64,000 nucleotides of DNA. Origin: Actinomycetota bacterium (GTDB lineage: Bacteria; Actinomycetota; Aquicultoria; Aquicultorales; JAMCWL01). Below are positions 11,473 through 60,186 of the stretch, in pieces. The notes under the pieces were generated by a model that saw nothing but the letters and a program-made list of their open reading frames with translations, did not search any database and was not told where the DNA came from. The stretch covers positions 1,539 to 65,538 of the forward strand of contig JAMCWL010000001.1 of the NCBI GenBank assembly GCA_023481285.1. The letters are read 5' to 3'. The position numbers and the translations under genes were made by a program. Every line of letters starts with the position of its first letter. Positions within the stretch are counted from its first letter, which is position 1.

Positions 11473-11494
11473 GGTTTTAGGCAGCGAGGCAGCC

Positions 11495-11526
11495 AGGCAG
11501 CCTCTAAGGCTGCCTTTTATTTTTTT
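11495..11526 (+). terminator. Rho-independent terminator after tatA
   Basis: Stem AGGCAGCC / GGCTGCCT, loop TCTAA, followed by TTTTATTTTTTT. Confidence 0.75.
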
Positions 11527-13775: not shown

Positions 13776-13840
13776 GTCTTCTCTACTTGGTCCAGCGCAT
13801 TATATTGATACTGACCAGATAGGACGGAGAGGGCATTTAT

Positions 13841-15535
13841 ATGGGAAAGAGCAAGCAAAAGAGAGGAGATAAAAGACCCGTTCCGCCGAGGAAGAGGCCC
13901 GTTATCGAAGCCGGTCTTACCTCCATCATCATCCCCGTGCACAACCGGGTGGAGCTGACCCGACTCTGCATTGAGACCATAAGGGAGTGCACCCCAGAGG
14001 ACTCTTACGAGCTCGTCGTGATCGACAACGGCTCGACCGACGCCACCCCCGAGTACCTGACCGGGACCGGGGCGCATGTCATCCGATTCCCCGAGAACCG
14101 GGGGATCGCCGTCGCCTGGAACGCCGGTATCAGGGAGGCGAAGGGGCGGTATCTCGTCTTTTTGCACAATGACGTCCTCGTCTCGCCCGGATGGCTCGAA
14201 GCTATCCTGAGGCCGTTCGGCGATCGCCGGGTGGCTTGTGCCTGCCCCTCTTTCATGGAGTCCCAGCTCAAGCTGGATTTCCCGAAGCTCGCGGTGGACT
14301 TCTCCCAAATACTACCCGCGTACTGGCCGGGTAGCCTGACGCCGTTTTGCTTCGCGATCAGCCGCCGAGAGATTCACCGCATCGGTCCCTTCGACGAGGC
14401 GCTGACCCAGGGTCCTTATGCGGATTACGACCTCCTGTTCAGGCTCGCCAAGGCGGACGCGCCTCCCGTGGTCGTGAGCAACGTGCTCGTCCACCACTTC
14501 TGGGGGCAGACGGCGGTCGCCATACCGGAGTTTTACGGGGAGAACGACGAGCGAGACTGGCTCTACTTCAGGAAGAAGTGGAACCTTCCTCCCATGGAGC
14601 GCAAGTCCGAGGACCCCGACTTCATCGACCGCGTGCGGGGGATGGACCGAGTCGTCGTCCCGACGGGGCCGCCCGACTACCGCGTGGAGATCGAGAAGAG
14701 GGTCGCCCCGACCAAGCCGACTCGCATCGTCGCCTGCGTCTCCTTTTACAACGATATGAAGCTTCTGCCCGGGTGCATGGAAACCCTGGACGGCGTGGAC
14801 GAAATCGTCCTTATCGACGGGGCGTACGCCGGCTTTCCCCACGAGGTCCCCTGGTCAACCGACGGATCTCTCGAATGGATCAAGGAGCTCCAGAGGGTCG
14901 ACCCCAGGATAAGGTTGATCGAGTGTGAGCGGGCTTGGGAAGACGAGGTTAAGAAGAGGAGCGCCTACTTTGCTGGCGGCGATGGAGATTGGTGTCTGGT
15001 CATCGATTCGGACGAAAGGCTCGTCGGCAACGAGGCGAACCACATGGAGAGGCTCAAGGAGTACCTGGCCGTTTACCCATTCGACTGCGTCTTGCTGGAC
15101 GTCGAGACTAGGCCCTCCACGACTCCGATGGAGAGATACGCGCGCATCTACCGCCACCTACCTGGGCTGAGATACGAGACGACGCACTTCAATGTCGTCG
15201 CCGATGGAAAGAAGGTCACACTCGACGCCATGTGGTCGGGGAGGACCGCCGTCTACCGGGGCTTGTTCATCGTCCACCTGAAGCAGGATCGGGGGTCGGC
15301 GAGGCTGGGCGACTCATGGCGCTACTACCAGGAAATGGCGATGAGGGAGGTCGAGGCCTTGAAAAGGGAGATTGTTGCTTGCTGGAGCGACCCCGACAGG
15401 CGATTCGAGCGTCTGGCGTTGGTCCAGATATATCAGACGCAGGTCAAGCTGCTCGACAAGGAGCGAGCCGAAAGAATAGCTCTCGACCCAAAGTACCTCT
15501 CTTTTCACCTTGACACTTCGGGTGGCTATGTGTAG
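13841..15535 (+). CDS. Two-domain glycosyltransferase, paralog B (tandem duplicate of 12072..13775)
   Basis: 564 aa, collinear with paralog A. Upstream leader and RBS region also duplicated. Confidence 0.85.
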   Translation: MGKSKQKRGDKRPVPPRKRPVIEAGLTSIIIPVHNRVELTRLCIETIRECTPEDSYELVVIDNGSTDATPEYLTGTGAHVIRFPENRGIAVAWNAGIREAKGRYLVFLHNDVLVSPGWLEAILRPFGDRRVACACPSFMESQLKLDFPKLAVDFSQILPAYWPGSLTPFCFAISRREIHRIGPFDEALTQGPYADYDLLFRLAKADAPPVVVSNVLVHHFWGQTAVAIPEFYGENDERDWLYFRKKWNLPPMERKSEDPDFIDRVRGMDRVVVPTGPPDYRVEIEKRVAPTKPTRIVACVSFYNDMKLLPGCMETLDGVDEIVLIDGAYAGFPHEVPWSTDGSLEWIKELQRVDPRIRLIECERAWEDEVKKRSAYFAGGDGDWCLVIDSDERLVGNEANHMERLKEYLAVYPFDCVLLDVETRPSTTPMERYARIYRHLPGLRYETTHFNVVADGKKVTLDAMWSGRTAVYRGLFIVHLKQDRGSARLGDSWRYYQEMAMREVEALKREIVACWSDPDRRFERLALVQIYQTQVKLLDKERAERIALDPKYLSFHLDTSGGYV

Positions 15536-15638: not shown

Positions 15639-15686
15639 CCGCCTGGGTTTATTGATATAGTACCGCCTGGGTTTATTGATATAGTA
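15639..15686. repeat. Perfect tandem duplication, 24 nt x2 (CCGCCTGGGTTTATTGATATAGTA), upstream of the guaB3-like gene
   Basis: 15639..15662 equals 15663..15686, read directly. Confidence 0.9.
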
Positions 15687-16931: not shown

Positions 16932-17100
16932 CTGGTCTCTTAGTCTCCTGGTCCCTTGGTCTCTTAGATATGTTATGCGCTATTGAGGCGCTATTCGCGA
17001 TGGTGATTGTCGCTTTTTAAGAGGACTTTAGCTCATAGCTCATAGCTCATAGCTCATAGCCGCTTTTATCGGTGGTCTGTAGTCTGTGGTTCTATTGGTT
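16932..17100. repeat. Composite intergenic repeat: 8-mer array (CTGGTCTC TTAGTCTC..), short core with GCGCTAT motifs, 7-mer array (AGCTCAT x4.5), second GTCT-type 8-mer array
   Basis: Read directly. Begins 1 nt after the guaB3-like stop and runs into the spurious N-terminal extension of the guaA ORF. Confidence 0.8.
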
Positions 17101-18685: not shown

Positions 18686-18707
18686 GCGCCGTCCTAGGCT
18701 GCGCAGA

Positions 18708-18834
18708 GTATTAGAGCATTAGACATTAGAACATTAGAACTTATGAGGGTCTAGAGAGCTAAAAGACTTCCAGTCGGGCACCGGTGGCTCTAATGCGAAT
18801 CTGATGCTCTAATGTTCCAATGATCTAATGTTCC
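18708..18834. repeat. Intergenic element: CATTAGAA-type 8-mer arm (18708..18740), core (..GAGCTAAAAGACTTCCAGTCGGG..), inverted TTCTAATG-type arm (18786..18834)
   Basis: Arms are reverse complements at unit level. The core resembles AGCTAAAACCC..CCAGTTAA cores at 36862.. and 49343... Confidence 0.75.
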
Positions 18835-18859
18835 AGTAGGGTCCGCTCCGAACGGACTT

Positions 18860-18981
18860 CTGGTCTCTTAGTTTCATAGTCCCATAGTTTCTTAGTACCT
18901 TGGAAAAATGTCTTTCGTGCACCTTAAACCTGGGTACACCGATCGATGATTCACCAAGAAACCAAGAAACCAAGAAACCAG
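18860..18981. repeat. Intergenic element with TAGTTTCT-type left arm, about 50-nt core B (AAAAATGTCTTTCGTGCACCTTAAACCTGGGTACACCGATCGATGATTCA) and CAAGAAAC x3 right arm
   Basis: A near-identical element occurs in reverse orientation at 41948..42077. Confidence 0.85.
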
Positions 18982-19010
18982 TCAGATATTTTCGGGCGGG
19001 TTTTTATGTT

Positions 19011-25771: not shown

Positions 25772-25849
25772 TCTTGTCTTAGACGGCACTCATCGAAAAT
25801 CGAAGCTAGAAATTCGAACTCCGAGGACCTACTTGCGAACCAAGCCCCA

Positions 25850-25877
25850 ACTGATAACCGATAACTGATAACTGACA
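25850..25877. repeat. 7-mer tandem array ACTGATA/ACCGATA x4
   Basis: Read directly. Confidence 0.7.
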
Positions 25878-26128
25878 TCCGAGAACTGAGGGGAAACGAA
25901 GAGGAGCTTTCCAGTTTCGCAAAGCTATAAAGGCCCATGTTAAGAGAGTGCCAAGTTTAGTCCCTGCGGTATTGGGTAGCTGTATCAAGGTTACCGAATG
26001 GGGTTTAAAAGATGTCCTTATTCAGCCGTACGGCCGCATTCTCGATAATGCAGGCTTGAGGTCCTGTGAAATAGTGAGGGATCGTACATAGGCTGCGGTA
26101 ACCCTGCAAACTGAAAGGAGGAATATCG

Positions 26129-27655
26129 ATGATATGCCATATAAAGAGGGGTATTGTAGCTGCCATTTTGGCGCTGGTGCTTGTCTTCAGCGCTGTCGTC
26201 CCTACACTGGCGTCAAGCCACCGTGAGGCACCGCAGATAGCCAACAACCCGGTCGCCGACAATACAGACCTCTACGTCTTTCGGAGCCCAGATCGGCCTG
26301 ACTCTGTGAGCATAATCGCCAACTATTTCCCATTCGAAAATCCGGCGAACGGCCCTTTGTTCTATAAGTTCGCCGACAATGTCCGCTACACGATCACCGT
26401 CTTCAACAACAAAGGCGATACCATAGTCTACGAGTTCAAATTTACCACGAAGATAAGGGACGACGGTACCTTTCGATACAACAAAGATAATGGGCGCATA
26501 GACTCTCTAACCGCGAAGGCGTTCAACATCCGGCAGACCTACACCGTCACCCGGACCAGGAAAGGCTCGAGCACCACATTGGGAACCGATCTCCCGACCC
26601 CTCCGGTCAACATCGGGCCTAAATCCACGCCCAACTATGAGTCGTTGGCAAGCCAGGCGATATCCGGTCTGGACGATAACATCAAGGCCTTTGCGGGCCA
26701 GCGGGACGACCCCTACTTTGCCAACGATGGGGCCTTTTACGATCTGCTCAACACGCCTATTCCGCCCGGGAGCAAGGGGCCGGGCACAGACGCCTATGCC
26801 GGTTTCAATGTCCAAACGATCGCTTTGCAAGTGCCTATTACACAGCTCGTAGAGTCTCCAAACGGCATCATTCCGAGTAACCCATCCGATCCAAACGCTG
26901 TGATAGGTGTTTTTGCAAGCGCTGAGTTGCAAAGCGGCACGATACCCTCCAGTTCCGGTAAGGACTCGGCTAAGAATGGCAAAGTTAGCGGAAGCTGGTT
27001 ATCGAGCCTGTTAAAGCCCATCTTCGGAAGACCGCGCGGTACTACAACTACCACTACTACGACTACGACGACAACCCCGGGCGGTGCGAGTTTTACGCAG
27101 GTCTCTCGCGTGGGCCAACCGCTCGTCAATGCGTTGATCCTTCCGCTCAAGAATAAGGATCGTTGGAACCAGAGCAATCCACGGGACGACAGCCAGTTCA
27201 ACAATTCTTATCGAAACCCATTGCCGGCCGACTATCTCAAAACGTTTATAGGCATTACGCCGCCTTCTATGCCCCGCACCGATCTTACCAAGATCCTACT
27301 TGAAGGCTTCTCGCTAAACCAGGTGGGCGTTAACTTCTCGAACCAGGGTGGCGGTCCTAAGCAGGCCGACCTGATTAGGTTGAATGTTGCGGTTCCTCCA
27401 AAGAAGCCGACGGATCCAGGCTTCAATCGACTGGGCCTCTTCCGCGGCGATCTCGCGGGCTTTCCGAACGGGCGGCGGCTGGAGGATGACGTCATGGACA
27501 TCATGATGCAGATATTCGCAGGAGCAACTCCTTTCTCCTCCGACCTTAACGTGCCGCCCAACAGCACGCTCAGCGACGGCGTCGATGGGAACGACGTGCC
27601 CTTCCTAAGCAGTTTTCCGTATGTTGGAACGCCGCGCCCTGCCTTCGGAGGGTAA
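26129..27655 (+). CDS. Secreted DUF4331-family protein, paralog A (contains a Thr12 run)
   Basis: Signal peptide then SSHREAPQIANNPVADNTDLYVF, the hallmark N-terminus recalled for DUF4331. AGGAGG 8 nt upstream of the ATG. Confidence 0.85.
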   Translation: MICHIKRGIVAAILALVLVFSAVVPTLASSHREAPQIANNPVADNTDLYVFRSPDRPDSVSIIANYFPFENPANGPLFYKFADNVRYTITVFNNKGDTIVYEFKFTTKIRDDGTFRYNKDNGRIDSLTAKAFNIRQTYTVTRTRKGSSTTLGTDLPTPPVNIGPKSTPNYESLASQAISGLDDNIKAFAGQRDDPYFANDGAFYDLLNTPIPPGSKGPGTDAYAGFNVQTIALQVPITQLVESPNGIIPSNPSDPNAVIGVFASAELQSGTIPSSSGKDSAKNGKVSGSWLSSLLKPIFGRPRGTTTTTTTTTTTTPGGASFTQVSRVGQPLVNALILPLKNKDRWNQSNPRDDSQFNNSYRNPLPADYLKTFIGITPPSMPRTDLTKILLEGFSLNQVGVNFSNQGGGPKQADLIRLNVAVPPKKPTDPGFNRLGLFRGDLAGFPNGRRLEDDVMDIMMQIFAGATPFSSDLNVPPNSTLSDGVDGNDVPFLSSFPYVGTPRPAFGG

Positions 27656-27986
27656 TTCCTGAGATTCGGTCCGCCGAGATCCTTGTGGATGTGAGCTAAA
27701 AAGAGCGGTCGCCGGGAAAACCGACCGCTCTCTCACTAAAGAGCGGTAAGGATATTACCAGACCCCGGATAAGACAACCCGTACGAAGACCCCTGAATCC
27801 GGAGAGACGTGTAGCGTGTTTATTTACCGTACCAGTGGGTAGCTGCATGACGTTGCGCGTCGGCATTAAAGGCGTCGGCATTGAAAACAAGTTGGAGCTC
27901 GAAGTGCAAATTTGGCCACTTGTTTATTGATGCAAGCGCCATCCGACTCAAAGACTGTTTTGCAAGTATATTCGCGAGGGAGTGAG

Positions 27987-29414
27987 ATGCACGTGAGGAT
28001 GATGAGGAAAAGTGCAAGGAGGGGGATCGTGGCCGCGCTGATAGCGTCAAGCCTAATTGTCGGCGGCGTCGCTCCCGTTTGGGCGTCAAGCCACCGCGAA
28101 GCGCCACGCGTGGCCGAGGACCCCGCCGCCGACAATACCGACCTTTATGTCTTTCGCAGTCCCGACAACCCGGATATGGTGAGTATTATCGCCAACTTTG
28201 TTCCGTTCGAGAATCCCGCCAACGGTCCTCTCTTCTACAAATTCAGCGATGACGCCCTCTATCAGATCACCGTCTTCAACAACAAAGGCGATACCATAGT
28301 CTACGAGTTCAAATTTACCACGAAGATAAGGGACGACCACACATTTCGCTACAACAAGGACAATGGGCGCATAGACTCTCTAACCGCTAAGGCGTTCAAC
28401 AACCGGCAACTCTACACCGTCACCCGGCTTAAAAACGGCCAGGACAGCGTGTTGGGAACCGATCTCCCGACCCCTCCGGTCAACATCGGGCCTAAATCCA
28501 CGCCCAACTATGAGTCGTTGGCAAGCCAGGCGATATCCGGTCTGGACGATAACATCAAGGCCTTTGCGGGCCAGCGGGACGACCCCTACTTTGCCAACGA
28601 TGGGGCCTTTTACGATCTGCTCAACACGCCTATTCCGCCCGGGAGCAAGGGGCCGGGCACAGACGCCTATGCCGGTTTCAATGTCCAAACGATCGCCATC
28701 CAGGTTCCCATCACACAGTTGGTGCAATCACAAAACGGCGTAATTCCGACGAATCCGTCTGATCCGAACTCGGTCATCGGTGTTTTTGCAAGTGCCAGCC
28801 GGCCGCGGACGCGAGAGCTCAAGCCCGGCAACGGCGCTACGAACTCGGGTGACAATATTCAGATCTCAAGAGTTGGCCAACCGCTCGTCAATGCGTTGAT
28901 CATTCCTCTCAAGGATAAAGATCGTTGGAACCAGAGCAACGCGCTGGATGACGGCCAGTTCAACATCTTCTACCGCAACCCGCTGCCGGCCGATTATGTC
29001 AAAACGTTTCTTGGTGTGGATACGCCTTCCATGCCCCGGAACGACCTGACCAAAATCTTGCTCGAAGGTTTCTCGCTTAACCAGGTCGGGATTAACTTCT
29101 CAAACCGAGGGCCCGGTCCTAAGCAGGCCGACCTGATTAGGTTGAATGTTGCGGTTCCTCCAAAGAAGCCGACGGATCCAGGCTTCAATCGACTGGGCCT
29201 CTTCCGCGGCGATCTCGCGGGCTTTCCGAACGGGCGGCGGCCTCAGGACGACGTCATGGACATCATGATGCAGATATTCGCAGGAGCAACTCCTTTCTCC
29301 TCCGACCTTAACGTGCCGCCCAACAGCATGCTCAGCGACGGCGTCGATGGGAATGATCTGCCTTTCCTGGACACCTTCCCGTTTCTCGGAACGCCGCACC
29401 CGGGAGCCTCATAA
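27987..29414 (+). CDS. Secreted DUF4331-family protein, paralog B
   Basis: Start moved to ATG 27987 (MHVRMMRKSARRG.. signal peptide, GAGGGAG upstream). Collinear with paralog A. Confidence 0.85.
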   Translation: MHVRMMRKSARRGIVAALIASSLIVGGVAPVWASSHREAPRVAEDPAADNTDLYVFRSPDNPDMVSIIANFVPFENPANGPLFYKFSDDALYQITVFNNKGDTIVYEFKFTTKIRDDHTFRYNKDNGRIDSLTAKAFNNRQLYTVTRLKNGQDSVLGTDLPTPPVNIGPKSTPNYESLASQAISGLDDNIKAFAGQRDDPYFANDGAFYDLLNTPIPPGSKGPGTDAYAGFNVQTIAIQVPITQLVQSQNGVIPTNPSDPNSVIGVFASASRPRTRELKPGNGATNSGDNIQISRVGQPLVNALIIPLKDKDRWNQSNALDDGQFNIFYRNPLPADYVKTFLGVDTPSMPRNDLTKILLEGFSLNQVGINFSNRGPGPKQADLIRLNVAVPPKKPTDPGFNRLGLFRGDLAGFPNGRRPQDDVMDIMMQIFAGATPFSSDLNVPPNSMLSDGVDGNDLPFLDTFPFLGTPHPGAS

Positions 29415-30789: not shown

Positions 30790-30827
30790 CCGACAGGGGT
30801 AATATAGACCGACAGGGGTAATATAGA
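30790..30827. repeat. Perfect tandem duplication, 19 nt x2 (CCGACAGGGGTAATATAGA), 29 nt upstream of the MetE-like gene
   Basis: 30790..30808 equals 30809..30827. Confidence 0.9.
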
Positions 30828-32698: not shown

Positions 32699-32833
32699 AG
32701 AAGGACCGGGTCGTGTATAAACCGGTGCTTTAATAGACCGCCGACCGCGGACACCGCCATTAATCGACTGACGACCGCCGACCGCCGATACATATTGTGG
32801 TTAACCGCATATACCTGCCTCGTCGCTACCGCT

Positions 32834-33030
32834 CTTGTTTCTTAGTTTCTTAGTTTCTTGGAACCTCCGGGTGACTATTGGAGGCGCTATAAACGACCGC
32901 CGTCGGCCGTCCGCCGTCCGCCGCTATAAAGCTTGGATATATGAGGCGCTATTCGCGTTGGATGAGGTTGCCAAGAAACCATGAAACCAAGAAACCAGGA
33001 AACCAAGAAACCAGGAAACCCGGACGGCGA
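32834..33030. repeat. Core-A composite element: GTTTCTTA/G 8-mer left arm, about 110-nt core with three GCGCTAT/CCGCTAT motifs and a CCGNCCG run, AAGAAACC-type right arm, GC-rich outer motif
   Basis: Core almost identical to 52171..52272 and similar to 47986..48075. Additional CCGACCG heptamers at 32738..32790 and their complements at 33160..33195. Confidence 0.85.
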
Positions 33031-33153
33031 ACGTTATAACGACGGCCTCTCCTTAAAACCTAGCGCTTGCTCGAACGCATACGCCGCATTCAAAATAATC
33101 CCCTCGCCGAATGTCGGGCCGATGATCTGCAAGCCCACCGGCTGCCCGTACAT
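33031..33153 (-). pseudogene. Duplicated fragment of the gatA 3' end (last about 38 codons plus stop)
   Basis: 33032..33142 is the exact reverse complement of 41829..41939 (111/111 by eye), with similarity continuing to about 33149. Sits between the ligase stop and the core-A element. Confidence 0.85.
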
Positions 33154-33204
33154 AGCGGCGGTCTGTGATCGTCGGTCGGTGGTCGGGCGGTTCACGAACC
33201 GCCC

Positions 33205-36840: not shown

Positions 36841-38996
<2,156 letters not shown>

Positions 38997-40485: not shown

Positions 40486-41937
40486 ATGACTCTATACAAT
40501 CAAACCATTGCCGAACTTCATAAGAAGCTGGTCGCTCGCGAGGTCTCCTCGGAAGAGATAACGCGCGACGTTCTCGAACGCGTAAAAGATGTCGAGCAAG
40601 AGCTAAAAGCCTACCTTACGCTAACTGAGGAAGCGGCTTTGGCGGCAGCGCGCACAGTTGACGCAAAGATTGCAGCGGGAGAGAAGATAGGGCCGCTGGC
40701 CGGTATTCCCGTCGCCGTCAAAGATGTCATGTCGACGAAGGGCGTCAGGACGACCTGCGCTTCGAAGATACTCGAAAACTACGTCCCGGTCTATACCGCG
40801 ACGGCGGTGAAAAAGCTCCTCGGTGACGGCGCCGTCATGATCGGTAAGACCAACATGGATGAGTTTGCCATGGGCTCGTCAACCGAGAATTCCGGCTTCA
40901 ATCCGACGATGAACCCCTGGGATATTGAAAGGGTGCCCGGCGGCTCTTCGGGAGGCTCTGCCGCTGCTGTGGCCGCGGGGGAGGCGATCTACGCACTTGG
41001 ATCGGATACCGGAGGGTCGATCCGCCAGCCCGCGGCGCTTTGCGGCGTCGTCGGGATGAAGCCCACCTATGGCCTGGTAAGCCGGTACGGTCTTGTTGCC
41101 TTCGCTTCCTCTTTGGACCAGATCGGGCCGTTTACAAAGGATGTGACGGACTGCGCGATCGTTTTGAAGGCGCTCGTCGGCCATGACCCCGCCGACTCTA
41201 CATCCCTCGAGTATGAGGCCGAGGAGTATGTCGAGGCCCTGCAGAGAGATGTTAAAGGCATGAGGTTCGGCGTTCCGAAAGAGTTTATGGAGGAAGGCGT
41301 CGAGCCAGGTGTCAAGCAGCGTTTCGAAGAGGCCATCGAACTCTTCGCCAAGCTCGGGGTCGAAGTCGACGAGACGACGCTGCCCCACGTCGATTACGCC
41401 CTGAGCGCTTACTATATCATCGCGCCAGCGGAGGCCTCGTCGAACCTCGCCCGCTTTGACGGCGTTCGCTACGGCCTCAGGGTCGAAGGCGAGGATATGA
41501 TCGACACCTATATGAAGACGCGGGCCGCCGGCTTCGGCGATGAGGTGAAGCGGCGCATTATGCTCGGAACGTATGCGCTCTCCGCGGGCTACTACGAGGC
41601 CTACTATGGCCAGGCTCAAAAGGTCAGAACCCTGGTCGCTCAGGACTTCGAGGAGGCCTTCAAAAAGTTCGACGGGATAATCTCGCCGACCTCGCCGACG
41701 GTCGCCTTCAAGATCGGAGAGAAGGTGGCCGACCCGCTGGCGATGTACCTGTCGGACATCTTCACGATCCCCGTGAACCTGGGAGGATTTCCGGGCATTT
41801 CGGTACCGTGCGGGCTGTCGGACGGGCTGCCGGTGGGCTTGCAGATCATCGGCCCGACATTCGGCGAGGGGATTATTTTGAATGCGGCGTATGCGTTCGA
41901 GCAAGCGCTAGGTTTTAAGGAGAGGCCGTCGTTATAA
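40486..41937 (+). CDS. gatA: Asp/Glu-tRNA amidotransferase subunit A
   Basis: Amidase signature [12 protein letters not shown], 483 aa. Confidence 0.93.
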
Positions 41938-42132
41938 CGACCGCTGGCTTGGTTTCCTGGTTTCTTGGTGGATCATCGAGCGGTGTACCAGGTTTAAGGT
42001 GCACGTAAGACATTCTGCCAAGGTTCTAAGAAACTAAGAAACTAAGAAACTAAGAAACTATGAAACTAGGAAACAAGAGCGTAAGCGACAAGGCAGGTAT
42101 ATGTGATCTATACCGTCGGCGGTCGGCGGTCG
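41938..42132. repeat. Core-B composite element (reverse orientation) inside the gatA-gatB intergenic region, with GGTTTCYT left arm, AAGAAACT x6 right arm and GGCGGTC outer heptamers
   Basis: The reverse complement of 41948..42077 aligns with 18860..18981. Confidence 0.85.
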
Positions 42133-42148
42133 GAAATTTGAGGTAACC

Positions 42149-44281: not shown

Positions 44282-44413
44282 AGACTCCAATTCTTTCCCG
44301 AGCGGCCACGCGACCGTCTCCATCTTTTTCTACGGCTACCTGGCTTGGCTGGCGGCGACCCGTCTCAAACTTCAATAAACGCTAAAGTTATACATCCTAC
44401 AGGCCGATAGGTC

Positions 44414-44442
44414 AGATTATCGGATGGTTAGATTATCGGATG
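44414..44442. repeat. Direct repeat AGATTATCGGATG x2 (period 16)
   Basis: Read directly in the long leader region upstream of 44795. Confidence 0.7.
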
Positions 44443-44668: not shown

Positions 44669-44707
44669 CGCCGGTTCAGCTTGGCGCCGTTCAGCTTGGC
44701 GCCGTTC
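44669..44707. repeat. Tandem repeat CGCCGTTCAGCTTGG x2.5
   Basis: Read directly, about 90 nt upstream of the homocitrate-synthase-like gene. Confidence 0.8.
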
Positions 44708-47231: not shown

Positions 47232-47395
47232 CGTCCGCCGCCTAGTTTCCTAGTTTCCTGGTTTCTTGGTTTCTTGGCAACCACATCCAACGCGAATAGC
47301 GTCTCCAACAAGCACCCGGAGATTCCAAGAAACTAAGAAACTAGTAAACTAAGAAACTAAGAAACTAAGAAACTAAGAAACCAGAACGGCGGTCG
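47232..47395. repeat. Short core-A element (reverse orientation) between large- and small-subunit genes: CGTCCGCC, TAGTTTCC/TGGTTTCT arm, 49-nt core, AAGAAACT x7 arm, GGCGGTCG
   Basis: The reverse complement of the core (..TTGGAGACGCTATTCGCGTTGGATGTGGTTGCC) equals the long core A with the segment between its two GAGGCGCTAT motifs missing. Confidence 0.85.
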
Positions 47396-47416
47396 AAAAT
47401 ATAATTAGGAGCAGTA

Positions 47417-47914
47417 ATGTTATTTAAAGGTAAAGCCTGGAAATTTGGTGATGACATCTCGACCGATCATATCGCGCCCGGTAGGTTGTTTCACCTGCGT
47501 ACGAACCTGCCGGAGCTTGCCAAGCATGTTCTGGAGGATGCCGACCCCGAGTTTGCTTCCAAGGTTCAACCGGGTGATTTCGTCGTCGGGGGGCGCAACT
47601 TCGGTCTTGGCTCGAGCCGGGAGCACGCGCCTCGCATCATCAAGCTCGCAGGCGTTGGCGCCGTCCTGGCCAAGAGCTTCGCGCGTATCTTCTACCGGAA
47701 CGCGATCAACATCGGTCTGCCGGTGCTCACCTGCGACACGGATCAGATCGACGCCGGCGACGAGCTTGAGGTCGATATCTCAAGGGGCGAGGTCAAAAAT
47801 CTCACCAAGGGGATATCCATCAAGACGACCGCTCTGCCGGACGTGATGATCAAGATATTGAACGACGGCGGCATCGTCGAGCACTTTAAGAAGCATAAGG
47901 GTTTTGCCCTGTAG
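47417..47914 (+). CDS. Aconitase-family dehydratase, small subunit (LeuD/HacB-like)
   Basis: 165 aa; [30 protein letters not shown]. Confidence 0.88.
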
Positions 47915-47920
47915 GATTGA

Positions 47921-48192
47921 CCGCGGATCGCCGACCGCCGTCCGCCGCTAAGGGCGGCTATGAGCTAAAGGCACACGCGTGGATGTTGGAGGCGCTATAA
48001 ACGACCGACGACCGATGACTGCCGCTATAAAGCTTGGATGTGTGAGGCGCTATTGGGGCGATGGATGGGGTTGCCAGGAAACCAAGAAACCACGAAACCA
48101 AGAAACCAAGAAACCAAGAAACCACGAAACCAGGAAACCAAGAAACCAGGAAACCAAGAAACCAAGAAACCAAGAAACCAGGACGGCGGACG
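47921..48192. repeat. Core-A element with an expanded one-sided arm: CCGNCCG heptamers, core A, then about 13 units of GAAACCAA/GAAACCAG/GAAACCAC (48076..48181), GGACGGCGGACG
   Basis: Read directly. No matching GGTTTCTT arm on the left side of this copy. Confidence 0.85.
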
Positions 48193-48197
48193 TTTAG

Positions 48198-49301: not shown

Positions 49302-49457
49302 GTGCCTTTAGCTTTGAGCCATGAGCCATGAGCCATGAGCTTTGAGCTAAAACCCAACGCTTGGATGCGCCCAGTTAATGCATGACCGATGACCGAAGGG
49401 ATTGTACGTTAGGTTCTAGCTCACGGCTCACGGCTCATAGCTCAAAGCTGAAAGCAC
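49302..49457. repeat. Long hairpin element: 40-nt arms of AGCCATG/AGCTTTG 7-mers (49302..49341 vs 49418..49457) around core C
   Basis: The reverse complement of the right arm matches the left arm at 35/40 positions. All 5 differences are transitions. Confidence 0.85.
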
Positions 49458-49642
49458 TCGCTTTCACGCGTAGGTGGATGCAAAGCGGTTAAGCACGCGG
49501 CCGATTTGATGTATAATCCCAACGAGGCGCCCGGATGGTTCCTGGACGGTATGGCGTGGCAACCTCCATACGTTGCATCCATAAGTCGCCAGGCTGTCCG
49601 CAAGACGGGCATCTGTTTAATCCAAAATCAGGGGGGATTTCT

Positions 49643-51369: not shown

Positions 51370-52105
51370 GCGGCGCATCTTGAGTTACTTATCGACCATC
51401 GCCGCGATGCTCCTTGCCTGGCAAGGGGCGTCGATGGTCGTCCGCTCTGCCGCACTCCCGGCCCCCTTATCGGTCATGTCAAGCTTCGCCGAGCTGATGA
51501 GGGGAGAGCTTCTCAAGCACTTCTTGATCAGCTTTTATCGGGTTGCGGTGAGCATCATCCTGAGCGTCTCCCTGGCGGTCCCGCTGGGGCTCGTCCTCGG
51601 CAGGGAAGAGAAGCTCGATCGCTTCTTCGCGCCCTTCATCTTTCTGACCTACCCCATCCCGAAGATAGTCTTTCTCCCGGTGATCCTGCTTCTTCTGGGG
51701 ATTGGAAACTTGTCAAAGATAACCCTCATCGTCTTGATCATCTTCTTCCAGATTCTGGTCACGACGCGGGACGCCGCCCGTGCAATCCCGGCGCAGTCCA
51801 TTCTTTCGGTCCGCTCGCTCGGGGCTGGATGGCGGCAGGTCTACCGCCATGTCGTCTTTCCTGCCTGCCTCCCGGATATCTTCACGGCTCTCAGGATCAG
51901 CGTCGGGACGGCGATCGCCGTTCTCTTCCTCGCCGAATCCTACGCGACCGAGGAGGGGCTCGGCTATTTTATCATGGACGCCTGGACCCGTATCAACTAC
52001 CCCGAGATGTTCGGCGGCATTACGGCGATGGCGCTGATGGGAGCAGTGGTCTATGAAGCCCTAGAGGCGTTGGAACGCCGCTTCTGCGCCTGGACGAGGA
52101 ACTAG
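51356..52105 (+). CDS. ABC transporter permease (BPD_transp_1, SsuC/TauC-like)
   Basis: 249 aa polytopic. Overlaps the ATPase gene by 14 nt. Confidence 0.85.
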   Translation: MAMDKRRILSYLSTIAAMLLAWQGASMVVRSAALPAPLSVMSSFAELMRGELLKHFLISFYRVAVSIILSVSLAVPLGLVLGREEKLDRFFAPFIFLTYPIPKIVFLPVILLLLGIGNLSKITLIVLIIFFQILVTTRDAARAIPAQSILSVRSLGAGWRQVYRHVVFPACLPDIFTALRISVGTAIAVLFLAESYATEEGLGYFIMDAWTRINYPEMFGGITAMALMGAVVYEALEALERRFCAWTRN

Positions 52106-52328
52106 TCTCTTGGTCTCCTAGTACCTTGGTACCTTGGTATCTTGGTTTCTTGGAATCTTGGAATCTCTGGGTGCTTATTGGAGGCGCTATAAACGACCGC
52201 CGTCGGCCGTCCGCCGTCCGCCGCTATAAAGCTTGGATATATGAGGCGCTATTCGCGGCGGATGGGGTTGCCAAGAAACCAAGAAACCAGGAAACCAGGA
52301 AACCAGGAGGGCGGCGGTCGTCGGTCGC
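52103..52328. repeat. Core-A composite element with a long mixed left arm (TAGTCTCT..TTGGTACC..TTGGTTTC..TTGGAATC), core A, AAGAAACC/AGGAAACC right arm and GGCGGTCG outer motif
   Basis: Fills the entire gap between the convergent permease and S8 genes. Confidence 0.85.
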
Positions 52329-55300
52329 TAATACGGCATCACCCACCTCGTGGCTGCATTGTTCCAGTAGGGGGTGAAGTAGACCATGACCGGATTGCCG
52401 AGCTTGACGCCGTTTGACTGGAATATCCAGATGCCGGTAAACCCCCAGCCGTAGTCGTAGACGGCGGCGGCATCTTCCTTGCGGTCGCCGTTGAAGTCAC
52501 CGGGGATGAAGGTGGATCTTGCGTAATTCCAGTAAGGAGAGGCGTAAATGAACTGTGGATAGGCAAAGGCGTTTTTCCCCGGTAGACCGGTTGCTCTGAA
52601 GGTGAATACCCCGGTTGAGGTGCCGCCATAATTATAGAAGGCGATGATGTCCGTCAGTCCGTCTCCATCCACATCTCCGGTCAAGAAGGAGGTCGAGGGA
52701 TAGTACCAGTGGTTGGAGATGAAGGAGAGCTCCGGGTACTTCAGTGAGCCGTCCGAGTTTAATTCAAAGACCCAGAGGCCGGTCGTCGACCCCCCGTAGT
52801 CGTATGCCGCAACGACTTTGGATTGCGTCCCGCTTTTTGTGGATAGGAGCCTCGTTCTACCCCAATCCCAGTAGGGAGAGAAGAAGACCAGCCTTGGGTA
52901 TCTGAAGGTGCCATCGGGGTTCTGCTCGAAAACGAATACCCCGGTTGAGGTGCCTCCGTAGGTATAAAAAGCGAATAATTCGTCTTTGCCGTCCCCGTTA
53001 AAATCACCGGCGGTAAGCTTGGTGTTATCCCAGGACCAGTGCGGGGAGTAGAAGACCTGAACCGGCCCGCTGAAGCTGCTCCCGGTTGATCTCCATAACC
53101 AGAGGGCTGAAGTGGGCCCCCCGTAGTTATAGAGGGCGAGCACGTCGGCTTTTCCATCCCCGTTGAAATCGCCGGATACCGGCTTCGCCCGGGAAGCGTC
53201 GAAGTAGCCCCGACCGCTTGTCCACCACATACCGGGGGCGAAGGTCAGTCCCAGCGGGGTGTAAAAGCTGCCGACCGTCTTGAATGCCCATGCACCGGCC
53301 GTCGCCCCGCCATAGCTGTAGAAGGCTATGGCATCCGATCGGGCGTCACCGGTCACGTCGTTTACCACTACACCGGTGGCCGAAGCAGTATTCGAGTAAT
53401 CGGAGTTGTTCCCGGCGGCGTCATAAGCCCTCACCCGGTAGTAGACGACGCTCGTGCCCGGGGCATCGGTGAAGCTTGTAGCGACCGTCATACTGATTTG
53501 GCCCCAGTTGACCAGGTCGAAACTCCTTTCCACCTTGTAGCCGGCGACGCCGATATTGTCCGTCGAGGCGCCCCATGAGAGATTAAAGTAGGCCCCGGAG
53601 CGGGTGACGGTAAGGCTTGGAGGGGCGCTCGGAGGGGTGACGTCCGGCACGAACCCGGAAGCGACATTTGAGTAGCCGGAATAGTTGCCGGCCGAGTCGT
53701 AAGCTCTCACCCTGTAGTACCAGGTTCTGTTCTGGTCGGCCGGGGCTATCTGGTCCGAGTAGCCGGCCGCCGGGGGATTGCCCGTCACGATCCCCCTAAT
53801 TACCCAGCCGGTCGAGCCGTCCGCACTCCTGTCAATCTCGTAACCGGAGACACCGACCGGTCCGGTCGAAGCGGTCCACGAGAGATTGAGATTGCCACCC
53901 GAAAGGCTGACGGCGAGGTTCGCCGGGCTGGTGGGCGGTGTTGTAGATGTGAAGTCGAAAGCGTCGACGGAGACGCTGTAGCCGCTTGAAGATGGGTTTT
54001 TACTGCCCGTTACAGTTATCTGTAACGTATGAGATACCTGTAACGTATGAGATACGGCAGGCAGGCCTGAGGCTTGAAAAGCCAGCGACTGCCATCTGTT
54101 TTGCGAAGAGTAAAGATCAACGTTTCCCTGAGAAATCCCGTCGAGAGTGACGCTTACTATGCCCTGAGAGGGCGACTTGAGGGCTACCCAATTCACCGTC
54201 GATCCCGAGAAAGCGAGAGTCGCCGTCGCGCCGGTCGAGGCCGATGTATTATATGTGCCTCCACTTGCTCCGCCGTTTGATATAGCGCTCCAGTTGCCGC
54301 TGTACGTTATCCCGGACCAGCTCTCCTCAACCGATCCCATAGGTGTCGAGACGGCTCCGTCGGCGTTGACCCTTCCATAGCCGTAGTAAACGTCCCAGCC
54401 GGTGGTTCCCATATCGACGGCGGTCTCCATGACCAGGCGAGCGATCTGGTCGCCCGTCTTCGAGGGATATTTCGAGGCGGCGAGAGCCGCCACGCCCGAT
54501 GCGAAGGGCGTCGACATCGACGTTCCGTCGGCCCACGCATAGTTATTCTGCGGGTAGGTGCTCAGGATATTTACGCCGGGGGCGGCCAGATCGATCGACT
54601 GGCCGTAGTTCGAGAAAGAAGCCCTGCTTTCGGTGCCACCGCTCAGTTGAGTGGCGGCGACGCCGACGGCGCCGGGGCTTCCCGCTGGATAAAGAGTTAT
54701 ATCCGCCCCGTCATTGCCGGCCGCCGCAATAACGGCCGCCCCTTTTCCCCTCGCGTAAATGACCGCGTTGTCGATGGTCGTGGATTGGCCGGGCCCGCCG
54801 AGGCTCAAGTTGATGACTTTGGCCCCGTTGTCCGCGGCATACTGGATGGCGCTGGCTATGTCGCTGTCGTAACCGCTCCCGCTGGCGTCGAGTGCCTTGA
54901 TCGCCAGGATTCTCGAGTTCCAGGCGACGCCCGCCACGCCTATCCCATTGTTGGTGGCCGCGGCGGCGATGCCCGAGACGTGGGTTCCGTGGCCATGGTC
55001 GTCCATGGGTTCGTAATTGCCGGCTATGTAGTTATAGCCCTTTATAACCTTCATACCCAGCGGGAGGTCGGGGTGGTTGTAGTCGACGCCCGTGTCGATG
55101 ACGGCTATCGTGACTCCGTCCCCGAGCGCCGAGTTCCAGGCCGCCTCGCAACCGATGCGCGGAGGACCCCACTGGTATCCGTAGTAGGGGTCGTTCGGGA
55201 CCGCAATCGCAGACCGTATGTAGTTAAGCTCAGCGTACTCGACTTTTGGATTGGACTTGAGAAGCTCGACCGCCGCTTCGGGAGTCGTACTCCCGGGGAT

Positions 55301-56058: not shown

Positions 56059-57654
56059 ATGTTCATGAAGTTGTTGAGATTATCTTTAGCATCCGCTCTT
56101 CTACTCACCAGCGCTCTTCTTCAGGCGGGTGACGCAGGAGCTACGCTCTATACGGTGGACAGCCAGCTAAAGCCGAAAGCCGCCGTTTCGGCGGCCAAAA
56201 TCGACGGTTTCATCAGGTACAAGAAGGCCGATAGCCCTCTCATCGGGCTCGGGCAAGCCTGGGTGGACGCGGGCAACAAGTATGATGTAAACGCGGTCTA
56301 CCTTTTTTCGCACGCCATTCTTGAGTCGGGCTGGGGAACGAGCCAGATAGCGACGGACAAGAAGAACATCTACGGCTATGGTGCCTACGACCGAGATCCT
56401 TACGGGTACGCGATGGCTTTTAACAGCTTCCAGGAGTGCATCGACTACGTCACCGGAAAGATCAACGCGAATTATCTTACTCCGGGAGGCGCTTACTATA
56501 ACGGGGCGACCTTGCGGGGAATGAACGTCAGATATGCGACCGATCCCAACTGGGGAAGCAAGATCGCCGGGATCATGAATCTCTTTGCCGATCCAATCGG
56601 CGCCTATCCGGCCGCGGTGCCGCCGAGCGGTTTCCCGGGCATCGCCTCTTCGGATGCGGTCGCGGTCTACAACTACGGCAGCGGCACTTCTGCCATCTGG
56701 AATTTCAGAACGGTCAGCGGACGGCAAGGGCTTACCCTGGCGCCTTATGTGGCCTGGCTTAGCGGTCCCCAGGGGCTGGATCCGGTATTCGTCAAATTCG
56801 TTACCGGCGATTTTAATGGCGACGGGGTAACGGACCTTATCGGCCTCTATGATTACGGCGGGCAGGTGGCGGCTTTCTGGCTTTGGAAGGGCAAATCAAA
56901 TGGAGCGCTCGAAAATCCGGTCAAGGTATTTTACATGCCGAGCTGGGAGGTCTCGCAGACCAAGCTGGTCTCCGGCGACTTTGACGGCGACGGCAAGAAC
57001 GAAGTCATGGCGTTTTATAGCTACGGGGGAACCAAGGTTGGCGTCTATCTCTTTAAAATGAACGCGAGCGGCGTCTTCGACAACCCCCGTCAAATCTTCT
57101 ACTCCCCTTACTGGGATTGGGGGCGGACGACGCTGCTTTCAATGAAAGCCGGCTCCCGCGCCGACGTGGTCGCCGCCTACAACTACGGCGGGACGGAGAT
57201 GGGGCTCTGGCAGTTCGGCCTTGACGCCAATGGCAATCTCATCTATCCGCAGCGGGTTTTCTACTCGCCTTACTGGGACTACAGCCGGTCGACCTTCCTT
57301 GCCGGTGATGTAAACGGAGACGGCTATGGGGATATCGTCGCCGTTTACAACTACGGCGGGACGAGCACCGGCGTCTTCACCTTTTACCGGACCGACGCCA
57401 CCGGTGCGAGCTACAGCTACCCCCGCATGGCCTTCCACTCACCATACTGGGCTTATGCGAGATCGAGCTTCCTCGCCGGGGACTTCAACCGTGATGGAGC
57501 CTCCGACCTCCTCGCTTTCTATGACTATGGTGGGGGGAGGACGGCCGCCTGGCTCTTCGGCGCCGACGGGTCGAGCCTTCGCTATCCGTCAATGATCTAC
57601 GAGACCCCCTTCTGGGACAATGCCAGAACGACCTGGTTAAAAAGTAGCAATTAG
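56059..57654 (+). CDS. Secreted peptidoglycan hydrolase (glucosaminidase/GH73-type domain) fused to the same six-blade FG-GAP-like module
   Basis: Signal peptide. HAILESGWG..YGYGAYD..YATDPNWG. C-terminal about 335 aa collinear with the S8 C-terminus. AGGAGG 7 nt upstream. Confidence 0.88.
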   Translation: MFMKLLRLSLASALLLTSALLQAGDAGATLYTVDSQLKPKAAVSAAKIDGFIRYKKADSPLIGLGQAWVDAGNKYDVNAVYLFSHAILESGWGTSQIATDKKNIYGYGAYDRDPYGYAMAFNSFQECIDYVTGKINANYLTPGGAYYNGATLRGMNVRYATDPNWGSKIAGIMNLFADPIGAYPAAVPPSGFPGIASSDAVAVYNYGSGTSAIWNFRTVSGRQGLTLAPYVAWLSGPQGLDPVFVKFVTGDFNGDGVTDLIGLYDYGGQVAAFWLWKGKSNGALENPVKVFYMPSWEVSQTKLVSGDFDGDGKNEVMAFYSYGGTKVGVYLFKMNASGVFDNPRQIFYSPYWDWGRTTLLSMKAGSRADVVAAYNYGGTEMGLWQFGLDANGNLIYPQRVFYSPYWDYSRSTFLAGDVNGDGYGDIVAVYNYGGTSTGVFTFYRTDATGASYSYPRMAFHSPYWAYARSSFLAGDFNRDGASDLLAFYDYGGGRTAAWLFGADGSSLRYPSMIYETPFWDNARTTWLKSSN

Positions 57655-57685
57655 CAGTTATTAGCAATTAGCAATTAGCTGATTG
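57646..57685. repeat. AGCAATT-type 7-mer array containing the stop codon of the preceding gene
   Basis: AGCAATT AGCAGTT ATT AGCAATT AGCAATT AGCTGATT. The TAG stop is at 57652..57654. Confidence 0.75.
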
Positions 57686-59416: not shown

Positions 59417-59800
59417 ATGCGAGAAGAAGCGACATGGTGGCTTAGGGCCAGCGACAGGGATAAGCAAGCGGCGGAGAAACTTCTAAACTGGGACCTCTTC
59501 GAGAGTTCGGCTTTTCACGCCCAGCAATCCGCCGAGAAGGCGTTAAAAGCTTTACTAATCAGATACGGTCGAGAGGCGCGCACTCATTCATGCGTTAGCA
59601 TACTGAAGCTGCTGAAGATGGAGGGGCTGGATGTCTCATCGGTGGAGCTTTCTGCTAAAAGGCTCGACAGCCACTATATACAATCGAGATATCCCAATGG
59701 AGCCGGTGGTCCGCCGGAAGACCTATATTCAAAAGAAATCGCCGAGGAAGCAATGGAATGTCTAGGCCGGATTCTGAGTTTAGTGCATCAAAATATTTAG
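59417..59800 (+). CDS. HEPN domain protein (toxin-like partner of MNT)
   Basis: 127 aa; FHAQQSAEKALKALL and LDSHYIQSRYPNG motifs of PF05168-type HEPN. Confidence 0.75.
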   Translation: MREEATWWLRASDRDKQAAEKLLNWDLFESSAFHAQQSAEKALKALLIRYGREARTHSCVSILKLLKMEGLDVSSVELSAKRLDSHYIQSRYPNGAGGPPEDLYSKEIAEEAMECLGRILSLVHQNI

Positions 59801-60186
59801 ATCAAGCGCTTATTAATTCATTTCTTGATAATCTTGAGCAGCGCATTAAGGTAAAGGCCTTGATCGTTTTCGGCTCTAGAGCAAAAGGCGACGCCCTTTT
59901 AACAAGCGATTACGATATCGCAGTAGTCTCGGACGATTTCAAGGGTATGAAAAGGTTCGAGCGAACCTATTTATTGCTCGATGTCTGGGCCGCCGATCTT
60001 GCTTTGGAAGCCGTCGCCTATACAGAAGAGGAATTTATGAAAGCGACGGGCATGTTGGTGTGGGACATCTTGGAAGACGGAGTAGCTTTCAAAGACAAAG
60101 GGGTCTTCCGAGAGCGGAAAAAGCTCCATGACGATCTTAAGGCGGCCGGCAAACTTAAGAAAGTCGAAGGCGGCTGGGCGTTTTAA
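59758..60186 (+). CDS. Minimal nucleotidyltransferase (MNT) domain protein
   Basis: 142 aa; FGSRAKGD..SDYDIAV (GS-x10-DxD pattern). 43-nt overlap with the HEPN gene. Confidence 0.75.
   Translation: MSRPDSEFSASKYLDQALINSFLDNLEQRIKVKALIVFGSRAKGDALLTSDYDIAVVSDDFKGMKRFERTYLLLDVWAADLALEAVAYTEEEFMKATGMLVWDILEDGVAFKDKGVFRERKKLHDDLKAAGKLKKVEGGWAF

Follow-up and report, generated by a model that had tools for sequence, protein, structure and literature searches.

The DNA analysed here, referred to below as the window, is a 64-kb stretch of contig JAMCWL010000001.1 from an Actinomycetota metagenome-assembled genome (MAG) near Candidatus Aquicultor, whose LeuD is 85-92% identical to Candidatus Aquicultor and Aquicultorales proteins. 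It includes the genes leuC, leuD and leuB, of which leuD (47417-47914) is flanked on both sides by repetitive elements built from tandem 7-8-nt units and a shared core, which we called core A. In reading order, the leuC/leuD element (47232-47395, minus strand) starts with CGTCCGCCGCC directly after the TAA stop codon of leuC, and continues with a left arm of four to five GGTTTCYT-type units (47241-47279), an inverted core A derivative of 49 nt (47278-47326), a right arm of seven AAGAAACT units (47325-47384, x6.9) and a CGGCGGTCG end, followed by the ribosome-binding site (RBS) of leuD. The leuD/leuB element (47915-48195, plus strand) has no left arm, and comprises, after the leuD stop, GC-rich CCGNCCG heptamers (47919-47947), a 90-nt core A (47986-48075) with two GAGGCGCTAT motifs, a sole right arm of 13.4 CCARGAAA units (48074-48183) and a CGGCGGACG end, followed by the leuB RBS. 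This agrees with an earlier note on this DNA, which had described two copies bracketing the gene for the small dehydratase subunit, one of them with a one-sided arm of about 13 units.

The arrays were located by Tandem Repeats Finder (TRF) and by an independent scan of the window, taking as strict only those whose period is 7 or 8, with three or more units and no more than one mismatch between adjacent units. Twenty strict arrays were found, all (20/20) in non-coding DNA, which makes up 18% of the window; none (0/20) lies in its coding DNA, and none was obtained in 20 shuffles of the window. There are 16 occurrences of the triple unit (ARGAAACY x3) where 0 are expected and eight of GAGGCGCTAT where 0.21 are expected, and the density of 7/8-mer arrays is 0.31/kb, compared with 0.034/kb across 827 kb of the relatives' leuD neighbourhoods. 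The window arrays are real and non-random, and they lie where the earlier note had placed them. They have the properties of simple sequence repeats, namely head-to-tail units of 5-11 nt, an occurrence beyond chance and an enrichment in non-coding DNA, and are not clustered regularly interspaced short palindromic repeats, as had also been stated, since the units are 7-8 nt long, contiguous and without spacers. Arrays are present in 12 of the 49 intergenic gaps, eight of which separate co-directional plus-strand genes, one co-directional minus-strand genes, two convergent genes and one divergent genes.

Modular anatomy of the elements

In its general layout an element combines short GC-rich end motifs (CGNCCGCCG and its complement) with two arms, one built of tandem 7-8-nt units and the other its reverse complement, on either side of a 50-110-nt core. 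The elements begin 0-1 nt past a stop codon and leave the RBS of the next gene intact, and whole elements are found in either orientation relative to the adjoining genes. The previously proposed plan, in which a core is flanked by a left arm and, on the right, by its reverse complement, was upheld for the family but not for every array, as several are one-armed (those at 25849, 36841, 57645 and 11479), and the outer inverted pair of GC-rich motifs is recovered in the predicted fold, in which CGNCCGCCG...CGGCGGNCG motifs pair. The element family is modular, with arms, cores and GC-rich outer modules in differing combinations.

Self-comparison and alignment confirmed full copies of core A at 32862-32972, 47986-48075 and 52171-52272, the three sites already reported, and core A is also present as one partial copy besides the deletion derivative upstream of leuD. 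Two of the copies are 92% identical with their arms included (32840-33005 and 52140-52305). The short form (47278-47326) is, as previously described, an exact deletion between direct repeats TTGGAG(G/A)CGCTAT, and its orientation, opposite to that of the three full copies, had been missed. Two other cores go beyond the earlier description. Core B has two copies in opposite orientation, one at 41972-42023 and the other, inverted, at 18907-18952 (89% identical over 109 nt, within the regions 41946-42080 and 18857-18985), whereas core C belongs to the 7-mer (AGCYWTG) arms and is found at 49350-49417 and partly at 36867-36895, the regions 36841-36895 and 49324-49378 being 80% identical. An additional module, CCGACCGCCGACCGCCGA...ATATACCTGCC.TGTCGCT, is located outside the left arm at 32772-32832 and, inverted, outside the right arm at 42085-42135.

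The neighbouring genes supported by Pfam are an IMPDH-like gene (inosine monophosphate dehydrogenase) and guaA, guaA and a chorismate mutase gene, gatA and gatB, leuC, leuD and leuB, and leuB and the binding-protein gene of an ABC transporter, and the earlier identification of the genes on either side of the elements holds for these pairs. The coordinates that follow are given with a strand where one was assigned. The gap between the IMPDH-like gene and guaA contains a chimeric element (16932-17065) that starts at the base after the stop codon, with a left 8-mer arm of the GGTCTCTT type (16932-16967), the right part of core A (GCGCTATTGAGGCGCTATTCGCG, 16968-17003) and TAGCTCA x4.6 (17029-17060). 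After guaA there is a CATTAGAA-family element (18686-18856) with a left arm (18705-18740), a core (18741-18798), a right arm TCTAATGN (18799-18835) and GC-rich outer motifs, and then a core B element (18857-18985, minus strand) that is inverted relative to the gatA/gatB copy and consists of a degenerate left arm (18860-18906), core B (18907-18952) and a right arm of (CCAAGAAA)x3.5 (18953-18981). The core B element between gatA and gatB (41938-42135, plus strand) starts with a CGACCGC end motif directly after the TAA stop, followed by a left arm (41946-41971), core B (41972-42023), a right arm of (CTAAGAAA)x6.8 (42024-42079), the inverted outer module (42085-42112) and CCGTCGG heptamers (42113-42135), after which comes the gatB RBS, GAGG. 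Between leuB and the ABC binding-protein gene lies an element of the 7-mer family (49305-49460), in which a left arm of AGCYWTG x5.7 (49310-49349), core C (49350-49417) and a right arm (49418-49455) are arranged so that a higher-order unit pattern is common to both arms.

Two core A elements occupy convergent gaps. The composite one (32740-33035, plus strand) has, on its left side, CCGNCCG heptamers (32740-32790), the outer module (32790-32832) and a left arm (32833-32862), and, on its right side, core A (32862-32972), a right arm x6.2 (32971-33020) and the end motif CGGACGGCGAACG. It is followed by a captured pseudo-fragment (33036-33185, minus strand), the reverse complement of the 3' end of gatA and then a piece of core A (CGACCGACGATCACAGACCGCCGCTAT). 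The other (52103-52327, plus strand) fills the entire gap between two convergent stop codons, with a degenerate left arm (52103-52166) overlapping the TAG stop, core A (52167-52270), a right arm x4.8 (52269-52308) and a GC end (52309-52327) abutting the stop of a subtilase gene. Among the one-armed arrays, a heptamer array of AACTGAT, that is TAACTGA (25849-25889, plus strand), reads AACTGAT AACCGAT AACTGAT AACTGAC... and lies after uvrD, 240 nt upstream of a DUF4331 gene; AGCTATC x3.7 with a core C-like sequence is found in the divergent gap (36841-36895, plus strand), and TAGCAAT x4.6 lies between a glucosaminidase-domain gene and a DUF1622 gene (57645-57679, plus strand). The weakest array found by TRF and the scan, AGGCAGCC x3 in a gap between minus-strand genes (11478-11502), may be unrelated.

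Other gaps hold short tandem duplications of about two copies with periods of 15-48 nt, mostly 100% identical (1327-1425, 4045-4082, 15639-15686, 30790-30827, 44410-44442 and 44669-44707). Among the genes of the window there are two tandem duplications, of family-2 glycosyltransferase genes (12072-15535, 78-92% identical in stretches) and of DUF4331 genes (26129-29414, 85-87%), the UvrD-like helicase gene (22752-25652) contains an intein splicing domain (residues 267-509), and an overlapping pair of HEPN-domain and nucleotidyltransferase genes is found at 59417-60186, an arrangement typical of toxin-antitoxin systems.

Insertion into operon junctions and exchange between copies

The leu junctions of relatives allow the history of the elements to be followed. 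In four of them (L105, L106, L115 and L116, LeuD 90-92% identical) the leuC-leuD and leuD-leuB gaps are of 8-24 nt and the stop codon overlaps or abuts the RBS, whereas the equivalent gaps of the window measure 185 nt and 283 nt. The window elements are thus insertions specific to this lineage, placed past a stop codon and ahead of the following RBS, which bears out the earlier proposal that they were inserted between cistrons, and, as judged from these alignments, they are shown to have entered compact operon junctions after the split from the nearest sequenced relatives. At the leuD/leuB site, TTTAGATGGAGGTC on the right of the element is colinear with TTTAGCTGGAGGTC of the relatives, which includes their stop codon and RBS, and a second stop-containing pentamer, TGTAG, ends leuD on the left of the element (TGTAG...TTTAG), so the flanks look like a short duplication that preserved both stop and RBS.

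More distant relatives (L107, L117 and Candidatus Aquicultor secundus) have expanded junctions too, filled with unrelated sequence. In six contigs of Ca. A. secundus with identical LeuD, obtained from different samples, 45-, 24- and 47-nt units are present in one to three copies, depending on the contig, at the leuC/leuD and leuD/leuB junctions (L109-L114: 9640-9980 and 10535-10660), the 45- and 24-nt units being mutually inverted (GTCATTCTGAA / TTCAGAATGAC). The expanded junctions and this copy-number variation indicate that the leu junctions are recurrent landing or expansion sites in the clade. A search of metagenomes with the window LeuD found only relatives at up to 86% identity, and a 20-mer of core A had no match in the JGI metagenomes.

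The copies have also exchanged parts. The segment 33002-33149 is the reverse complement of 41822-41969, with 95% identity over 148 nt, and this inverted duplication runs from the 3'-terminal 116 nt of gatA (115/116 identical), including the stop codon, through the end motif and 2.5 units of the arm to the point where the cores diverge. The copy of the gatA fragment is embedded between element modules downstream of an ATP-dependent DNA ligase gene, and its far side abuts a core A piece (…GACCGCCGCTAT). Another element has thus acquired a gatA fragment, one junction being the shared arm, and this is direct evidence of arm-mediated ectopic exchange or template switching. Such exchange would also generate mosaic elements, of which the core deletion between 10-nt direct repeats, the chimeric arms and the moved gatA 3' fragment are examples.

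A unit-level comparison was made of 37 right-arm units (within 18953-52308) and 25 left-arm units (within 16932-52166), cut in register and with the left arms read as their reverse complement. The right-arm units follow the pattern GAAAC-Y-A-N, in which, apart from one base, positions 1-5 and 7 do not vary, and the only other variable positions are 6, with C or T, and 8, with A in 21 units, G in 12, and T and C in two each. The left-arm units are degenerate at positions 2-4 (GAGAC, GGGAC, GGTAC, GATAC, GATTC), and deviating cells at these positions amount to 20/75 in left arms versus 0/111 in right arms (Fisher p = 2e-9). The asymmetry follows the direction of the genome or of transcription, not the orientation of the element, and in the inverted core B copy the degenerate arm is likewise on the upstream side. 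The uniformity of the downstream arm would result if slippage had recently been restricted to it, the alternative being selection on the GAAAC sequence. Deamination at Dcm-type (CCWGG) sites was considered as the cause of the variation at positions 6 and 8 and is not supported: it would produce the changes seen at both positions, but the window shows no depletion of CCWGG (observed/expected ratio 0.94-1.05).

PF05635 cassettes and described repeat systems

Similar arrays were sought in a genome collection by a scan for the triple unit ARGAAACY x3. Among the matches listed, many are chance matches in coding repeats, and there is a clear excess of Chloroflexota/Anaerolineae MAGs with arrays. The Chloroflexota arrays are made of CAGGAAAC, TAGGAAAC, ACTGATCT, GGGGATT and CCCTAAC units, start right after stop codons, face their complements and are often nested. 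The Chloroflexota MAG JBDRGC01 has at least ten such loci (L008, L017, L022, L026, L045, L060, L062, L074, L103 and L104), with 94 arrays in 71 kb, or 1.3/kb in this pre-selected sample, and none of these dense loci contains a PF05635 gene.

Genes of the PF05635 family, whose product is the 23S rRNA intervening-sequence protein, a bAvd-like four-helix bundle, do adjoin arrays elsewhere. In L128, a probable Zixibacteria locus (LeuD 74% identical), a bAvd-like PF05635 gene (1779-2210, E = 1e-39) directly follows leuD and sits between (TTCAAGGG)x3 and (CCCTTGAA)x3-4, and further cases are found in L011 (Ca. Edwardsbacteria, 690-1200) and L040 (Chloroflexota, 2420-3090). The arms of L011, TTGGTATCCTTGTATCTTGG... 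and CCAAGAAACCAAGATACCAGGAAACTAGGAAAC, belong to the window's own unit family (CCAAGAAACC / CCAGGAAAC). We surveyed the flanks of PF05635 genes in 48 loci, 45 of them from IMG/VR (L198-L242), and found reverse-complementary flanks at z >= 5 in 32 of the 48. On inspection, the cassette arms are tandem 6-8-mers with a differing unit per cassette, and strict arrays number 43 in the 18 kb within 180 nt of the PF05635 gene against 23 in the 97 kb further away (about 10 times denser), 39 of the 43 having period 7. Versions of one PF05635 protein from Zixibacteria, Nitrospirota, Nitrospinota and Deltaproteobacteria share 74-91% identity, as would be expected for a mobile gene. Several of the PF05635 genes have in-frame stops.

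It is conceivable, although we put it forward only tentatively, that the window elements are gene-less miniatures of cross-phylum mobile hairpin cassettes in which a PF05635 gene lies between inverted 7-8-nt arrays, and that the classical intervening sequences (IVSs) of ribosomal RNA (rRNA) genes belong to the same class. On this view, the arrays that flank the gene may be a target of the four-helix-bundle protein itself. When all six reading frames of the window were searched with the family profile, no PF05635 gene or remnant was found (best E = 7.8), and the window cores are unlike any compared PF05635 cassette or other locus. The only prior description of a PF05635 gene with inverted heptamer arrays that we found, in a literature survey of incomplete coverage, is the 23S IVS of Coxiella burnetii, which has an S23p/PF05635 open reading frame (ORF), a 28-bp terminal stem and, according to strain, two or three copies of the heptamer GACAGAT, and which is removed by RNase III cleavage in the stem (PMC4990558).

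The 23S IVSs of Coxiella and Leptospira resemble the window elements in being selfish inserts in a transcribed region, with inverted arms that form a long stem and, in Coxiella, include tandem heptamers. In contrast, the window elements lie in intergenic gaps of mRNAs (there is no rRNA in the window), lack an ORF and have longer arms and extra GC-rich flanking modules. Repetitive extragenic palindromes (REPs) and bacterial interspersed mosaic elements (BIMEs) are mosaic combinations of modules found in intergenic regions downstream of coding regions (PMC3733652), and most of the occupied gaps of the window are likewise downstream of ORFs, between co-directional or convergent genes. The likeness to REPs, BIMEs and REPINs further includes inverted hairpin-forming units, mosaicism and one end motif that begins with CGTC. 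However, REPs are single palindromes of 20-40 bp with 8-9-bp stems, loops of 4-5 nt and a defined head (GTAG or CGTC) and tail, whereas the window arms are tandem 7-8-mers that pair across a 50-110-nt core, and there is no RAYT gene in the window. Assignment to the CGTC-tagged REPs was rejected against the definition of the family, the end motif CGTCCGCCG forming no hairpin by itself.

Correia/NEMIS elements of Neisseria, the BOX elements of Streptococcus pneumoniae and BrickBuilt are also small, non-coding, dispersed and strictly intergenic, with inverted ends. BOX elements have a variable number of internal tandem modules. The same is described for BrickBuilt of Porphyromonas gingivalis (PMC4596501). 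In these elements the tandem module is internal and of 23-45 nt and the inverted repeats are unique, whereas in the window the arms are microsatellites and the core is unique. The short tandemly repeated repetitive (STRR) sequences of cyanobacteria and the TAACTGA and GGGNATC repeats have 7-nt units in two to dozens of copies of variable number, and are non-coding, near stop or start codons and preferentially between aligned ORFs (PMC4679880, PMC4692102). The TAACTGA unit, known from Beggiatoaceae, Cyanobacteria and Bacteroidetes (PMC4679880), is identical to that of the window array at 25849-25889, and GGGNATC is known from Xanthomonas and Nostoc. All of these are described as plain arrays, and paired inverted arrays, a conserved dispersed core and end motifs are absent from those descriptions.

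The window elements are, like the mycobacterial interspersed repetitive units (MIRUs), actinobacterial, intercistronic and variable in copy number, and the 45-47-nt units of Ca. A. secundus look most like MIRUs. In Mycobacterium these are direct repeats of 40-100 nt between the cistrons of operons, polymorphic between strains and often with small overlapping ORFs; unlike the window elements, they have neither inverted arms nor separate cores. In the phage and plasmid collections no related element was found, and the only similar sequences were octamer iterons beside parA. Plasmid p1 of Nitrosomonas eutropha C91 (NC_008341.1; L243:2494-2585) has a perfect (GAAACCAT)x11 next to parA, and a Tunicatimonas pelagia plasmid (L244:2500-2632) has (GAAACCAT)x4 followed by (TAACCCAT)x10, also next to parA; these arrays are probably partition or operator iterons. 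The octamer GAAACCAT is only a minor variant in the window arms, and the parA arrays differ in being perfect, single direct repeats without inverted partner, core or dispersal among housekeeping operons. The claim that the window elements are far more elaborate than classical REPs and BIMEs was too strong, since precedents exist in BIMEs, BOX, the STRR, TAACTGA and GGGNATC heptamer arrays and the stem of the Coxiella 23S IVS. On the available sequences, the elements would be best placed as a variant of selfish intergenic repeat DNA, with microsatellite inverted arms, cores and end motifs as added features.

Nature of the elements and alternative explanations

In our view, the elements are probably lineage-specific, selfish, non-coding, hairpin-forming mosaic intergenic repeats, of the kind of MITEs (miniature inverted-repeat transposable elements) and BIMEs. 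Their insertion, dispersal, occurrence in both orientations and reshuffling of parts are shown by the comparisons above. They have terminal inverted repeats (CGNCCGCCG and its complement, and arms that pair in the folds), dispersed copies (cores A, B and C) and empty sites (in L105, L106, L115 and L116), and as to an autonomous relative, there is no transposase in the window and PF05635 cassettes with like arms are found only in other phyla. The parent may have been a cassette with a PF05635 gene between such arms. Arm length would change by replication slippage, as suggested by the element with 13 units on one side only and by the varying copy number of the analogous repeats in Ca. A. secundus strains, and the shared arms may serve as homology for ectopic template switching, which would explain the mosaicism. 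When transcribed, two-armed copies are predicted to form near-perfect stems of 20-45 bp, which would probably be substrates of RNase III or serve as U-less hairpins for pausing or termination, and which would uncouple cistrons that were translationally coupled in the relatives. Thus, of the three roles that had been offered without ranking, MITE-like DNA is favoured as the origin and RNA hairpins as a likely consequence, with protein binding as a live minority view.

Several observations weigh against this explanation. The left-arm changes break pairs with no compensating change in the partner arm, and right-arm units as strikingly uniform as these are not predicted for neutral selfish DNA. 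No transposase, RAYT or PF05635 gene is present among the genes of the window, and the boundaries of the elements are unstable, with a combination of modules that varies per copy, so that recombination rather than transposition may be the main route of spread. Only two sites can be compared for a target-site duplication, and the flanks of the leuC/leuD site have at best a weak 9-nt resemblance. The cores have no match in about 1.7 Mb of other loci, in the JGI metagenomes or in the phage and plasmid collections, and the census of elements covers one window of the genome. RNase III-type processing of the stems is suggested by analogy with intervening sequences and Correia elements only. Transcribed Correia hairpins are cut by RNase III.

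The predicted folds bear on the possibility that the host selected the elements as cis-regulatory RNA, that is, as intercistronic terminators, attenuators, stabilisers or processing sites that tune the neighbouring cistrons, as proposed for REPs and BIMEs. The stems are very stable, with a minimum free energy of -65 kcal/mol for the two-armed region 47232-47400 against a shuffle mean of -31 kcal/mol (z = -9.7), and z = -6.2 and -3.6 for the two-armed regions 52100-52335 and 32760-33040, and a regulatory role would also fit the location of the elements almost exclusively between co-directional or convergent genes, directly after stops and before intact RBSs, as well as the U-less hairpin terminators reported in Actinobacteria. 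However, the region with the single 13-unit arm (47915-48197) folds no better than its shuffles (z = 0.09), and a divergent promoter gap is the site of one array. Nine elements were folded on both strands, and although the strands differ by up to 16 kcal/mol, the one that folds better does not follow the direction of transcription or, for core A, that of the core, in keeping with randomly oriented insertion rather than with selection acting on the mRNA. Strand-specific selection on RNA is thus not supported, the better-folding strand differing between copies, and intrinsic terminators were rejected, as no stem is followed by a U tract. A regulatory role is weakened by the compact 8-24-nt junctions with which the nearest relatives manage, the inconsistent orientation and strand preference, the copy without a second arm and the uncompensated decay of the left arms, and we consider it unlikely. 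Known RNA families were rejected as well, in agreement with the earlier note, which had not recognised the family: Rfam gave 0 matches at gathering score, and at E<=1 only miRNA-precursor models (33 against a threshold of 97 bits), which are generic long-hairpin noise.

The conservation of the arm units could instead reflect protein binding, the tandem 7-8-bp units, e.g. (AAGAAACC)n, being bound cooperatively as iterons by a DNA- or RNA-binding protein, as in plasmid partition and operator sites, for chromosome organisation, for regulation or by the element's own protein. GAAAC.A is near-invariant in the 37 right-arm units, and the perfect parA-adjacent (GAAACCAT)n arrays of the N. eutropha (x11) and T. 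pelagia (x4) plasmids indicate that octamer arrays like these can function as iterons. Among ribbon-helix-helix proteins, omega of pSM19035 and ParG of TP228 recognise 7- and 8-bp iterons arrayed in direct or inverted orientation, and PF05635 proteins are four-helix bundles similar to bAvd, which binds nucleic acid. However, the two arms would be equivalent as double-stranded DNA sites and yet the left ones are degenerate, with the highly significant excess of deviating cells given above. At least five unrelated unit sequences within 64 kb would require several proteins, no candidate gene for a binding protein is linked to any window element, and recent slippage explains the uniformity of the units equally well. 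Protein binding therefore seems to us quite improbable as the main explanation.

Selection on the right arm could also act through translation, with unpaired A-rich (GAAACYAN)n before the next RBS recruiting ribosomes, as an enhancer or standby site, or an RNA-binding protein. Before co-directional starts the right arm has more units than the left (gatB 6.8/2.5, leuD 6.9/4.6, leuB 13.4/0), the longer arm would leave unpaired A-rich RNA upstream of the RBS, it is in every case the arm with GAAAC in the mRNA sense that is conserved, and there is a precedent in the TAACTGA repeats of Beggiatoaceae, for which such a role was proposed (PMC4679880). We hold this to be very unlikely, as long right arms are also found before convergent genes (32971-33020 and 52269-52308), with no start to serve, the informative cases are three, good Shine-Dalgarno sites are already in place, and the cores, end motifs and inverted left arms are left unexplained.

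Finally, an assembly or binning artefact is barely credible: the source is a MAG and tandem arrays can be mis-sized by short-read assemblers, but the longest window array is of 107 nt and thus shorter than typical sequencing reads, the elements are bounded precisely by stop codons and RBSs with intact adjoining genes, a like architecture is found in independent assemblies of several phyla, and unit-number variants of related repeats are reproducible between samples; any such error would be limited to the exact unit counts.

Read as selfish mosaic repeats, the elements constitute a natural experiment, in which selfish DNA has split compact and probably translationally coupled operons (leuCDB, gatCAB and guaB/guaA) without destroying them, and for comparison there are nearly identical genomes that lack the inserts. 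With inverted repeats that are microsatellites and evolve fast, one small unit would couple slippage and hairpin formation with ectopic recombination, and the variable arms would provide ready strain markers for an uncultured lineage. If the elements are indeed miniatures of PF05635 cassettes, much intergenic heptamer and octamer DNA, such as the STRR-like and Chloroflexota arrays, would be the footprint of such cassettes, which would link the intervening sequences of rRNA, the abundant genes for 'four helix bundle protein' of unknown function and the intergenic heptamer repeats, and the mobility and function of the PF05635 family would become testable.

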